Of a stretch of DNA of 64,000 nucleotides, positions 51,851 to 56,062 are shown piece after piece. Under the pieces are notes generated by a model, which did no database searches, was not told where the DNA came from, and saw only the letters and a list, made by a program, of their open reading frames with translations. A program made the translations under genes and the position numbers. Source of the stretch: Pristiophorus japonicus (taxonomy: Eukaryota); the NCBI RefSeq assembly GCF_044704955.1, contig NC_091999.1, forward strand, positions 64,666,001-64,730,000, in the 5' to 3' direction. Position 1 is the stretch's first letter. Every line of letters begins with the position of its first letter.

Positions 51851-51995
51851 CTCCTCCAATCCAGCGTGAGTAATCGGCAATTCATCAGGCACTGGAATCT
51901 TTCGGCGCTTGTGGACACGCACACCAGTGGGGCAAGGTACCCTCAGCAGCAGAAGGATGAATGTTAAGGCGGCACTTGATAGGAACAAGTGATAT
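51851..51995 (-). pseudogene. Probable transmembrane/cytoplasmic exon remnant of the class I-like pseudogene
   Basis: LFLSSAALTFILLLLRVPCPTGVRVHKRRKIPVPDELPITHAGLEE: hydrophobic stretch then basic HKRRK, ending at a strong GTGAGT donor (51850). The 5' end abuts a CR1 tail. Same strand as, and downstream of, alpha1. Confidence 0.45.
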
Positions 51996-52139
51996 TACAC
52001 TGTATTACATAAAATTCACAGCACAGAATTAGGTCATTCGGGCAACGAGCTCGATTTCAGTGTTTATGCTCCACACAAGCCTCCTCCCACCGTTCCTCCT
52101 CTAAACCTATCAACGTATCCCTCTATCCCTCACATCAGC

Positions 52140-52737
52140 AGACGGGGATGGAGTGTAAAAGCAGGGAAGTCTTGCTATAGTTATACAGGGTATTGGTGAG
52201 GCCACACCTGGAATACTGCGTGCAGTTTTGGTTTCCATATTTAAGAAAGGATATAGTTGCTTTGGAGGCAGTTCATAGAAGGTTCACTAGGTTGATTCCG
52301 GGGATGAGGGAGTTGACTTATGAGGAAAGATTGAGTAGGTTGGGTCTCACTCATTGGAATTCAGAAGAATGAGAGGTGATCGTATCGAAATGTATAACAT
52401 TATGAGGGGGCTTGACAAGGTGGATGCAGATAGGATGTTGCCACTGATGGGGGAGACCAGAACGAGAGGGCATAATCTTAGAATAAGGGGCCGCCCAGTT
52501 GAAACTGAGATGAGAAGCAAATTCTTCTCTCAGAGGGTTGTAAATCTGTGAAATTTGCTGCCTCAGAGAGCTGTGGAAGCTGGGTCATTGAATAAATTGA
52601 AGACAGAGATAGACAGTGTCTTAACCGATAAGGGATTATGGGGAGCGGGCAGGGAAGTGGACCTCAGTCCATGATCGGATCAGCCAAGATGTTAGGCCTA
52701 CACCTGCTCCTAATTCTTATGTTCTTGTGTTCTTATG
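52140..52737 (+). mobile_element. CR1 3' fragment, head-to-head with a minus-strand CR1 tail at about 52000-52135
   Basis: [21 protein letters not shown] tail. Confidence 0.88.
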
Positions 52738-53590
52738 TACTGAGGGAGATTTGCACTGTTGGAGGAGCAGTACTGAGGGAGCGCTGCACTGTCGGAAGAG
52801 CAGTACTGAGGGAGCACTGCTCTGTCGGAGGTTCAGTACTGAGGGAGCGCTGCACTGTCGCCGGGGCAATACTGAGGGAGTGCTGCAATGTTGGAGTGGT
52901 GGTATTGAGGGAACTCTGCACTGTTGGAGGGGCGTTATTGAGGGAGTGCTGCACTGTCGGAGCAGCACTATTGAGGGAGCGCTGCACTGTCTTAGGGGCA
53001 GTACTGAGGGAGCGCTGCAGTGTTGGAGGGGCAGTACTGAGGGAGCGCTGCACTGGCGTAGGGGCAGTATTGAGGGAGCGCTGCAGTGACGGAGGGCCGG
53101 TATTGAGTGAGCGCTGCACTGTCGCAGGTGCAGTACTGAGGGAGCCTTGCAGTGTCGGAGGGCCGGTACTGAGGGAGCGCTGCACTCTCACAGGGCCAGT
53201 ACTGAGGGAGCGCTGCAGTATCGGAGGGGCAGTACTGAGTGAGCGCTGCACTGTCGCAGGGTCAGTACTGAGAGAGTTTTGGAATGTCGGACGGGCAGTA
53301 CTGAGTGAGCGCAGCACTGTCGCAGGGGCAGTAATGAGGGAGCGCCGGACTGTTAGAGGGGCAGTACTGAGGGAGCGCCGCACTGTTGGAGGGGCAGTAC
53401 TGAGGGAGCGCCGCACTGTTGGAGGGGCAGTACTGAGGGAGCGCCGCACTGTCGGAGGGGCAGTACTGAAGGAGCGCCGCACCGTCAGAGGGGCAGCACT
53501 GAGGGAACGCCGCACTGCCGGAGGGGCAGTACAGATGGAGCGCCGCACTGTCAGAGGCCCGGTACTGATGGAGCGCTGGACTGTCAAAGA
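52737..53590. repeat. 33-bp minisatellite (about 26 units) derived from a SINE segment
   Basis: Unit GCAGTACTGAGGGAGCGCCGCACTGTCGGAGGG; the last unit runs into the SINE core (GATGCCACCTTTTCGAAT...AGGCCCCGTCTG). Confidence 0.93.
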
Positions 53591-53908
53591 TGCCACCTTT
53601 TCGAATCAACATTAATTCAAGGCCCCGTCTGTCTGCTGAGTTGAACATAAATCAAAGCTAGCAAGGACACAGTTCAATGCACACCAACAAAAGCAGATGA
53701 ACAGATCATTCATCTCCTTGCTATTTGCTGTGCTCCAAATGCCTGCCGTACTGCTCCCACAAAGGGTCAATCAGCAGCTAATTCCAAGTCAGTTATTGGG
53801 TGTGTAGTGGTGAGGGCCGTTTGTGCAAAACAGTATAAGGCTCCGTATCGATACAAATCCCTTCCTACTGTAACAGGGTCGCTGCACCGTCTCCGTGAGA
53901 TCATTTAT

Positions 53909-54168
53909 TCCTGGCACCCTGGCGCTGGCACTAAAATATCCCTGCGTTTCCTTTGACGAGGCTGTGGAAGCCCGCCATTGTGATAGCCATGGTATCGCAG
54001 TGATCCCTGTGGAAGGAGTTGGCCATCCACCGCTGTCTGGGCACAGTCTGCAGCAGTGTGCTGTCCAAAAATGCGATCTGATAGTCATCCAGCATCGCCA
54101 CCAAACTCTACTCGGCAGCTCGGCCCGGCCATGGTTCAGGAGGTAGCACATTGCCAAAATATGTTCAT
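53909..54168 (-). pseudogene. MHC class I-like alpha1 domain exon (nonclassical, frameshifted)
   Basis: Acceptor TTCCTGTTTGTGATCTAGCAG, then (D)EHILAMCYLLNHGRAELP / 1-nt deletion and TAG near 54110 / SLVAMLDDYQIAFLDSTLLQTVPRQRWMANSFHRDHCDTMAITMAGFHSLVKGNAGIF*CQRQGAR. This fits the class I alpha1 signature H-x-L...LPEFxxVxxLDDxQxxxxDS...PRQRW. Length is about 87 codons; the donor appears mutated (AT in place of GT). Confidence 0.8.
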
Positions 54169-54809
54169 CTGCTAGATCACAAACAGGAACCAATCTCAAA
54201 AATCCTGTAGATTGTAAAGTAATTCATGGTGGAATTAGCAGCGGTTGATGCTAAAACTGCTTACAGCATAAGAAATAGCAGCAGGAGTCGACCAATCGGC
54301 CCTTGAGCCTGCTCCGCCATTCAATAAGATCATGACTGATCTTCGACATCAACTCAACTGTCCCTCCCACATTCCCTGATTCCCTTGTGCCCAAGAATCT
54401 ATCGGTCTCTGTCTCAGATATACTCATCGACTGACCATCCACCACCCTCTCGGGTTGAGAATTACAATGATCAGAGTTAGAATATTCTGTCCAATGGGAC
54501 ACCGGTTGATCAGAGGGATGGCAAGTTCATGGAGAAGGTGTGGAAGAGATGTTCTTGGGTGATCCCCGGGTGTGAGCGGGTTGTGTTATGAGGAAAGACC
54601 GGGATTATTTTCACTGGAACAGAGAAGGTCGAGGGGAGCGGATAGAGGGCACCAAACTCTCGAGGATTTGGTCAAGTAAAGCGAATCAACACTTTTCATT
54701 ATTTGGTGAATCAGTAACCGGAGGCCATAAATTTAACTTCACCACAGGGCAAAGGGGACAATTCAGAGCATTTATTTATAATGCAGAGGGCTTGTGGGAT
54801 ATGGGAGCC

Positions 54810-55095
54810 CTTCCCTTCTCCATCCCTTTTCCGTCCCTTTCATTCCTCTTCCCTTCCTTCCCCGACTGTCCCTATCCATGTCCCATTCCCCTCCCTTTCC
54901 TTCCCCGACCCTCCCTATCCATGTTCCATTCCCCTCCCTTTCCTTCCCCGACCCTCCCTATCAATGTCCCATTCCCCTCCCTTTTCTTCCCCTTCATTTC
55001 CCACTTCTTCCCTCTAGCCCCTCACTTCCGTTCCATTTCCCTTCCCTGTCGCTCCCTTCCCTTCCCTTCCCTTCCTTTCCCCCTCCATTTCCAGC
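54810..55095. repeat. Polypyrimidine (CCCTT)n-like tract, continued at about 55600-55710 after a minus-strand CR1 fragment (55098-55600)
   Basis: Direct inspection. Confidence 0.85.
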
Positions 55096-56003
55096 CATAA
55101 CATAAAACACATAAGAAATCGGAGCAGGAGTAGGCCATACGGCTCCTCGAGCCTGCTCTGCCATTTAATACGATCATGGCTGATCTGATCTAGGACTCAG
55201 CTCCACTTCCCTGCCCGCCCCCTTATCCCCTTATCGATGAAGAAATTGTCTATTTCTGTCTCATATTTATTGAATGACCCAGCCTCCACCGCTCTCTGAG
55301 GCAGCGAATTCCACAGATTTACAAACCTCTGAGAAAAGAAATTCATCCTCAACTCAGTTTTCAATGTGCGACCTCTTACTCTAAGATCATGCCCCCTAGT
55401 TCGGGTCTCCCCCATCAATGGAAACATCCCCTCTGCATGCACCTTGACAAGCCCCCTCATAATCTTATATGTTTCGATAAGATCACCTCTCATTCTTCTG
55501 AATTCCAATGAGTACAGGCACAAATACTCAACTTTTCCTCATAATTCAACCCCTCAACCCCGGAATCAACCTAGTGAACCTTCTCTGAACTGCCTCCAAC
55601 GTCCTTTGTATTCCCCTTTCCATGCTTGCCCTATTCTCCCTTTCCCTATCCCATTCCCCTCACTTTCCTTTCCCGTTCTCCCCTCACCTTCTCTGTCCCA
55701 TCCCTTCCCTTCTGAGGTACAGCTCTAATACTTCACACCCAAATGGCGATTCTTTGTGTGCGCACCATGACAAGAATTCTCAGTCCATAAGAAAACTGCT
55801 CTTTGCAAACATATGTGCAACACAAATTGTGACAGTGCCCATTGGCGTGTACAGGGATTAGCCTTGCAATGAATCGCTCACACACACCCAATGCAATGAA
55901 ATACTACAGGCTCATTGACTGCTCAAACACTATCTTTTGATACTCTCAGTCTCGGGGTCCCCTCAAATATTGCCCACAGATAGAAGCTGTTTGAATTGCT
56001 TAC

Positions 56004-56062
56004 CAGAGGAGACTGTGGACACATAGTAAACATTCAGTAAAGTAACAAGCAGTATGTTCTAT
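56004..56062 (-). pseudogene. Leader exon of MHC class I-like pseudogene
   Basis: ATAG (damaged start) followed by NILLVTLLNVYYVSTVSS and G|GTAAGC phase-1 donor. Splices in frame to the alpha1 exon giving VSS-DEHIL. Confidence 0.6.

Follow-up and report, generated by a model that had tools for sequence, protein, structure and literature searches.

The window, a 64,000-nucleotide stretch of Pristiophorus japonicus DNA from C23, contains a nonclassical MHC class I fragment, a broken copy of the leader and alpha1 exons. It was likely transferred as genomic DNA from C19 into an IgNAR region of C23 and has likely decayed there without selection; for its intact parent we predict a ligand that is hydrophobic and lipid-like. 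We assign this reading as a whole a probability of roughly 0.88. The fragment itself probably has no function; its interest lies in the parent lineage and in the location of class I sequence that it reveals.

Judged by homology, both exons are genuine MHC class I sequence. The leader exon lies on the minus strand at 56004-56055, where the ATG start has become ATA, the phase-1 donor recognised in an earlier note on this DNA is indeed kept, and 14 of 17 residues are identical to those of the intact paralogue P0002. Its 5' flank (56056-56318, minus strand) is homologous to the C19 copies and carries a 28-bp deletion. Intron 1 (54169-56003, minus strand), also homologous to the C19 copies, holds a window-specific LINE fragment at 55099-55599 that we take to be CR1. 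The alpha1 exon follows at 53909-54168 (minus strand) with its acceptor kept, a 1-bp deletion at 54114-54115, TAG codons at 54110-54108 and 53933-53931, and the donor GT changed to AT. The earlier note held that alpha1 could be restored by repairing one frameshift; the domain and the 1-bp deletion are real, but two stops and a lost donor come in addition. Both TAGs had been overlooked, as had the altered start and donor and the deletion upstream of the leader.

The unbroken 56-aa piece of alpha1 matches PDB 9ch4_A (E=1.9e-10). A read-through that bridges all three breaks with X reaches 48.6 bits against an 85-row class I alpha1 HMM free of the fragment's own lineage, and 41.8 bits on an 80-row HMM from which UGA- and UFA-like rows were also removed; the best shuffled control reached 5.3 bits (about 1720 of 2000 shuffles reported). 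The Pfam MHC_I check that had been proposed gave a mixed answer. No match at E<=10 was obtained for the unbroken piece, neither it nor the short 5' piece yielded any Pfam family, and a PF00129 search across the genome did not pick up the fragment's alpha1 exon; but the intact alpha1, taken alone, also falls below the cut-off (21.5 against 28.3 bits), while the full parent protein scores 86.5 bits.

Alpha2, alpha3 and TM exons were found neither in the window nor in the 10 kb before or 40 kb after it, which bears out the earlier report that the alpha2 and alpha3 domains are missing. That a complete class I gene once stood here and retained its TM exon after an internal loss of alpha2 and alpha3, as first proposed, is extremely improbable. 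At 51985-51851 one can read hydrophobic residues, then basic ones, then a GT, yet tblastn gives no match between this putative TM exon and the lineage's genuine one, and homology to C19 stops at 52737. The lineage's TM profile, run over the whole window, gave a best E of 4.9. The rejected exon sits in a low-copy, non-coding segment of the C23 context (51283-52126) that is not class I; five other, unrelated copies of this segment in the genome are 71-75% identical and have broken reading frames, and open frames in a C18 copy match no Pfam family. Translations of this exon and of a supposed alpha2 stub (GPHHYT, 53818-53801) likewise yielded no Pfam family. The stub is intron sequence, to which five C19 copies align base by base, and lies within an intron 2 remnant (53586-53908, minus strand) about 89% identical to them. 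Nor does the adjoining minisatellite (52737-53585, plus strand; 25.7 copies of a 33-bp unit) fill a gap left by lost exons, as had been supposed: each of the five C19 copies that have an alpha1 carries this repeat in its own intron 2, and C19 homology ends at the low edge of the window's minisatellite. Instead of a leader-alpha1-TM architecture, we see a gene cut off inside intron 2.

The truncated gene is one part of a block of genomic DNA that spans about 21 kb and is 82-89% identical to the C19 cluster, with colinear intron and flank homology from 52737 to about 73790 (window numbering). The upstream part of the block at 56465-62627 (minus strand) is colinear with the C19 copies at 82-86%, and homology picks up again beyond the window. 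Because introns and flanks came along, colinear with the parent, the C23 copy is an unprocessed duplicate. Searching the genome with alpha1 returned 15 matches among 32 candidates, namely the window and 14 on C19, of which 5 are 80-85% identical and 9 are 30-45% identical. C19 is the MHC chromosome, with classical-like, UBA-like and UDA-like class I genes and a class II alpha gene. (PF00993 matched the genome twice, one match being on C6; a PF00969 search of the genome returned no match and is uninformative as to class II beta.) Identity to the C19 copies is 88-89% for the window, against 97-99% among the C19 copies themselves, and copying probably ran from C19 to C23.

The junction with C23 sequence is formed by a 5'-truncated LINE fragment (52144-52736, plus strand), presumably CR1, whose 3' tail abuts the minisatellite. 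The truncation probably came about through a break, or through repeat-mediated exchange, where minisatellite and LINE meet, either while the gene was being copied or later; further insertions followed. One later insertion (58359-59494, plus strand) is a 1.1 kb piece of an Ig heavy-chain locus, made up of the end of an intron, the last C exon (secretory tail, one stop) and the 3' end; loci on C13 and on four small contigs match it at 93% identity. The C23 junction itself lies in a repeat and is known from the assembly alone, as would be expected had a C19 haplotig or mis-scaffolded piece been placed on C23; such an artefact is nevertheless very unlikely, given 11-12% divergence from every C19 copy, insertions private to the C23 copy, and the absence of any N across the 64 kb that link the fragment to an IgNAR-type gene.

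Five inactivating lesions mark the fragment, and the window holds no open leader-alpha1-alpha2-alpha3-TM series with splice sites such as a functional class I gene has. Relative to the C19 copies the exon (87.5-88.6% identity) has been kept no better than intron 2 (88-90%). The changes in 86 alpha1 codons, 21 replacement or stop and 9 silent, do not reject neutrality (p=0.26), and the fragment has likely decayed without selection since it was copied; its dN/dS of 0.59, from only 30 changes, would accommodate brief constraint. Identity between the fragment and its intact paralogue (83%) is no higher than that between this paralogue and the skate gene (82%), the two being practically equal. One RNA run gave only low-depth contigs, with no splice joint.

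The IgNAR-type gene (4764-9086, minus strand; V exon 8730-9086 and three C1 exons) lies 45 kb from alpha1. Such proximity is what one would expect of a remnant of a primordial chromosome that carried MHC and antigen-receptor genes together, and section 13 of PMC10751288 proposes a shared ancestral region. We consider this origin most improbable here: introns and transposon relics align at 82-89%, a similarity that looks much too high for a separation dating back to the first jawed vertebrates, and a sawfish gene sharing the orthologue's RefSeq name is placed in an MHC-Ib cluster. By these alignments, the class I piece beside the Ig locus is a recent move rather than an ancient linkage.

The claim that all elasmobranch class I lies in the MHC has been used to argue for an MHC origin on one chromosome. 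In the P. japonicus genome class I sequence occurs on eight contigs other than C19, seven of them in addition to C23, and the MHC-only rule therefore needs a qualifier. C3 carries a cluster of class I genes that lack introns. Displaced, unprocessed fragments of class I genes are known as orphons. The C23 copy resembles them as a partial genomic duplicate away from its parent cluster that has likely decayed neutrally; the difference is that it runs counter to a passage of PMC10751288 which reports no class I outside the elasmobranch MHC in the genomes surveyed. As described there, that search required >50% query cover, and P. japonicus was not among the genomes.

An intact parent, a five-exon gene with canonical splice sites, lies at C19:44.956-44.973 Mb and is the one intact copy among six C19 copies checked. 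The earlier note had anticipated an intact paralogue elsewhere in the genome, and it does lie here, at C19:44.97 Mb; orthologues are present in sharks and rays of 11 other genera. A divergent nonclassical pseudogene was correctly recognised, but it is no relic of a lost lineage: on sequence comparison, it is a displaced partial duplicate from a lineage that survives, conserved, in both sharks and rays. RefSeq names the parent lineage MR1-like.

Groove positions and nine peptide-end anchors were assigned by HLA-A2 numbering, which we take to apply here. Mean hydropathy over 41 groove positions, in an alignment that slips locally in some rows, is 1.11-1.57 in the parent lineage (8 rows), against 0.44-0.91 in UGA, 0.79 in the UFA-like row and -0.03 to -0.11 in classical-like rows. 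Charged residues occupy 2 of the 41 parent positions, and the groove is near-invariant across 8 species. Only 1-2 of the nine anchors are kept, compared with 8 in the Triakis and sturgeon classical-like rows, which sets the parent apart from class Ia (UAA). The His reported at the Tyr59 equivalent is real and common to the whole lineage, whereas the Met at the Tyr7 equivalent is a TTT>ATG decay mutation of the dead copy, intact copies having Phe. The non-peptide ligand suggested earlier fits the groove of the intact gene, although the original argument leaned partly on decay mutations. A predicted structure of the parent (pLDDT 83) has as top match 9CH4, a shark UGA (Z 28.6, rmsd 1.7, 268 aligned, 41%), in a fold comparison that does not discriminate, since chicken peptide-binding BF2 ties with it (Z 28.4) and the Foldseek list is full of MR1. 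A first fold from a 10-row alignment (pLDDT 40) was set aside.

As the alignments have it, the parent possesses the hydrophobic, conserved groove of a CD1-like molecule. We consider it rather probable that it is a beta2-microglobulin-bound surface molecule that displays a conserved hydrophobic metabolite, such as a lipid, to innate-like T cells in the manner of CD1. The likeness to CD1 and MR1, conserved nonclassical class I molecules with non-peptide grooves, is one of working and carries no claim of orthology; MR1 is only 31-33% identical to the parent, whose ligand is predicted only. UFA and UGA, said in a personal communication cited in PMC12562908 to bind lipids, are the current evidence on the open question of the relative age of lipid and peptide presentation, and a further highly conserved lineage, intact in many species, would lend itself directly to ligand elution and structural work.

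UGA (PDB 9CH4; labelled in file 10 of the PMC10751288 supplement) is the best sequence and fold match to the parent. The two share helix motifs in alpha1 and alpha2, a hydrophobic groove, the same C19 cluster and occurrence in sharks and rays; they differ in overall sequence (41-44% identity), in anchors kept (1-2 of 9 in the parent, 5-6 of 9 in UGA) and in Phe7/His59 against Tyr7/Tyr59. It is possible, though we favour it less, that the parent is a UGA sub-lineage already so named or, instead of binding lipids, takes up small metabolites like MR1 or lacks a ligand. The shared motifs and identity speak for this, as do the description of UGA as 'single- or low-copy' in PMC12562908, the RefSeq name, and MR1 as next-ranked in structure and sequence matches. 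Against it, the groove is more hydrophobic than that of UGA, and true UGA orthologues by score, such as P0023, coexist with the parent in the same genome (on 9CH4, 466 bits for P0023 and 246 for P0002); skate also carries both genes. Compared by eye, the 26 labelled alpha1 queries of the PMC10751288 supplement include no member of the parent lineage.

Trees of 46 and 23 rows were drawn from about 165 proteins, with multi-domain or partial representatives omitted, as were P0001 and P0009 (incomplete models). The parent lineage and UGA form separate clades (100/100 each), both with sharks and rays, and a topology placing the rays together is rejected (p-AU 7e-5). A third CD1-like class I lineage, unnamed and predating the shark-ray split, whose groove is the most hydrophobic of elasmobranch class I and among the most conserved, presenting a fixed lipid to innate-like T cells, together with shark class I, including intact intronless genes, spreading outside the MHC, is a combination we advance tentatively, at somewhat under even odds. 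The literature searched gave no name for the lineage; Almeida 2020/2021, supplements and unpublished UFA/UGA work, which lay beyond that search, may name it.

The parent lineage, UGA and the UFA-like row join in one clade (99/90 and 97/97 in the two trees), within which the sister shifts with the model: UGA in the 46-row tree (93/85), UFA in the 23-row tree (63/10, one long-branch UFA-like row). UFA (PDB 8GM8), whose alpha1 matches a UFA-labelled sequence in the PMC10751288 supplement and which is described as CD1-like, also lacks peptide anchors; it differs in having another alpha2, and its long branch blurs the order of splitting. The genome contains a separate UFA-like alpha1 (by eye), and the parent is 32% identical to a UFA-like catshark protein over the ectodomain; both points speak against orthology with UFA. 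Rows labelled by eye from the supplement as UEA/UCA, UDA and UBA fall outside the parent clade, with 35-40% identity to parent alpha1 over short stretches. Grouping a chimaera 'UGA-like' protein with the parent lineage or with elasmobranch UGA is disfavoured (p-AU 0.017 and 0.039, respectively).

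Two class I exons, a leader (56055-56004) and an alpha1 exon (54168-53909) with PDB and profile matches, lie on the window's minus strand; we regard them, at close to nine chances in ten, as a real duplicate that has been displaced, truncated and decayed. The earlier note's assignment of both exons to class I is borne out: the top PDB match to the unbroken 56-residue piece of alpha1 is 9ch4_A (E=1.9e-10; 17 chains listed, all class I), and alpha1 read through, its three breaks filled by X, reaches 48.6 bits against a profile of alpha1 made from 85 class I proteins with the fragment's own lineage left out, and 41.8 bits once UGA- and UFA-like rows (two named shark class I lineages) are also dropped, versus a maximum of 5.3 bits for shuffled sequences. 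The Pfam MHC_I profile, proposed in that note as a check on the repaired alpha1, does not match the unbroken piece, and a genome-wide Pfam search also missed the exon; this carries little weight because the intact version of the exon itself scores just 21.5 bits.

The fragment is a dead gene. Its lesions, called by comparison with related copies on contig C19, comprise a start codon changed from ATG to ATA, a 28-bp deletion upstream of the leader, a 1-bp deletion in alpha1 at 54114-54115, two TAC to TAG changes in the same exon (54110-54108, 53933-53931) and an alpha1 donor changed from GT to AT. Identity to the C19 copies is 87.5-88.6% in the exon and 88-90% in intron 2. Of the changes in 86 codons, 9 are silent and 21 replace a residue or create a stop, a dN/dS of 0.59 that does not depart significantly from neutrality (p=0.26). 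The fragment is 83% identical to its own paralogue, which is 82% identical to the skate sequence.

An IgNAR-type gene occupies the window's left part. Its V exon (8730-9086, minus strand) carries CDR3 and J in the same open stretch, up to a splice donor, the mark of a germline-joined gene; C exons follow at 7207-4764 (minus strand), with one more ~7.5 kb before the window. Only Ig C exons answer to an alpha3 profile in the window, where alpha2 and TM profiles find nothing better than E 2.4 and 4.9, respectively. In the intact gene the lineage's real TM exon lies 9 kb past alpha3, and nothing in the window matches it, so the 'TM-like exon' formerly assigned to the fragment is rejected. That stretch sits in a segment that recurs five more times in the genome at 71-75% identity (C18, C23 twice, C2090, C2310), its frame broken by one- and two-base indels in three of four aligned copies. 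Relatives of the IgNAR-type gene's Ig C exons lie 29-53 kb from three of the copies, and the segment therefore probably travels with such clusters. Low-copy sequence at 49355-50258 and 51283-52126 is 71-78% identical to copies on C18, C23, C2090 and C2310, one of which contains an open frame of 227 codons that matches no Pfam family. Other details of the earlier note fared unevenly: GPHHYT, read as an alpha2 stub, is intron 2; the minisatellite thought to fill the alpha2/alpha3 gap is also present in the intact gene; and of the supposed replacements of Tyr7 and Tyr59, His59 is real, but all eight of the intact proteins examined have Phe at position 7.

Searching the genome with the alpha1 piece yielded 15 matches (32 candidates). 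One is the window itself, on C23; the other 14, five of them copies at 80-85% and nine of them exons less closely related, are all on C19. Because C19 bears classical-like, UBA-like and UDA-like class I genes as well as a class II alpha gene, we infer that it is the MHC chromosome. Window positions 52737-62627 are colinear with the C19 copies at 82-86%, and colinearity resumes past the window end at ~72730-73790 (67-85%), giving a duplicated block of ~21 kb. Within it lies a 9-kb array of a 38-bp unit (63794 to ~72733, past the window end); further 22-bp and 12-bp arrays follow. Homology ends at the minisatellite's low end, where a truncated LINE tail adjoins; at C19:44.91 Mb a copy stops matching at this edge too. 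The C19 copies are mutually 97-99% identical, which places the split of the C23 copy earlier than their expansion or homogenisation. Two later insertions are a LINE piece in intron 1 and 1136 bp of Ig heavy-chain locus in the upstream flank, the latter with six-base microhomology and no target duplication. This Ig piece (58359-59494, plus strand) is templated from another locus: its 1.1 kb matches C13:187.05 Mb and four small contigs at 93%, and the microhomology is at its left end. An intact paralogue, as had been predicted, does exist: among six C19 copies checked, that at 44.97 Mb encodes P0002 in five exons. The others have a stop in alpha2 (one) or alpha3 (one), no alpha2 within 40 kb (two), or a leader only (one). 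The leader-only copy, at C19:57.077 Mb, shares with the window a change in the leader and an upstream flank free of interruptions, and is possibly the fragment's closest relative.

Elasmobranch class Ib genes were not found outside the MHC, according to PMC10751288. Here, 19 of 41 PF00129 matches in the genome fall on seven contigs other than C19, so the fragment is a stray among many, less notable in itself but part of a more notable pattern. Copies fetched outside C19 are mostly processed or broken, with classical-like examples at C13:26.08, C17:3.90, C2:319.83, C5:216.43 and C6:62.07 Mb. Nine near-identical intronless copies at C3:316.6-319.3 Mb are likely an amplified retrogene; of four fetched, three have a frame that stays open from the leader through the cytoplasmic tail and one is frameshifted, and their alpha3 resembles, by eye, published nurse shark UAA-2. 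An intron-containing gene matching the predicted protein P0191, with a second partial copy, lies at C11:148.44-148.56 Mb. A class II alpha-like exon at C6:35.35 Mb, stronger than the C19 match, is possibly from a W-type gene, a label that is a guess.

The fragment's interest stems from its parent lineage. Among the matches listed (11 of 21; 15 of 2282 candidates), close homologues occur in Scyliorhinus, Mustelus, Heptranchias, Stegostoma, Chiloscyllium, Hemiscyllium, Cetorhinus, Leucoraja, Pristis, Hypanus and Mobula, with alpha1 identity of 69-86% for nine of these and generic MR1-like names in use; Heptranchias has 11 such sequences in one cluster. PDB 9CH4 is nurse shark UGA, on which a true UGA protein scores 466 bits and P0002 246 bits, and the genome contains separate UGA-like exons. 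In two trees the parent lineage (11 rows) and UGA (4 rows) each have 100/100 support and each include both sharks and rays; the two join a UFA-like row in a larger clade (99/90 and 97/97) whose internal order changes with the model. The UFA-, UEA-, UDA- and UBA-like row labels are by-eye matches to the PMC10751288 supplement. The parent lineage is absent from the 26 labelled alpha1 queries in that supplement, and a sawfish gene sharing its RefSeq name with the orthologue P0007 is listed there only as 'MHC-Ib'. The literature searched gave no name for the lineage. In the intact gene at C19:44.956 Mb, TM and cytoplasmic tail form a single exon running into a 10-bp repeat that yields a long repetitive tail.

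An AlphaFold model of the parent (96 sequences, pLDDT 83) has a class I fold. Its top structural match, 9CH4 (Z 28.6, rmsd 1.7, 268 aligned, 41%), ties with the peptide-binding chicken BF2, so the fold is uninformative on ligand, be it lipid-like, a small metabolite or none. The groove, taken as 41 positions in HLA-A2 numbering, is nearly invariant across eight species and has two charged residues. Its mean hydropathy of 1.11-1.57 compares with 0.44-0.91 in UGA and about -0.1 among classical-like proteins, and the parent keeps 1-2 of 9 anchors. UFA and UGA are reported, as a personal communication in PMC12562908, to bind lipids like CD1d. From its sequence, we lean towards a parent that would present a lipid-like ligand rather than bind a small metabolite or nothing.
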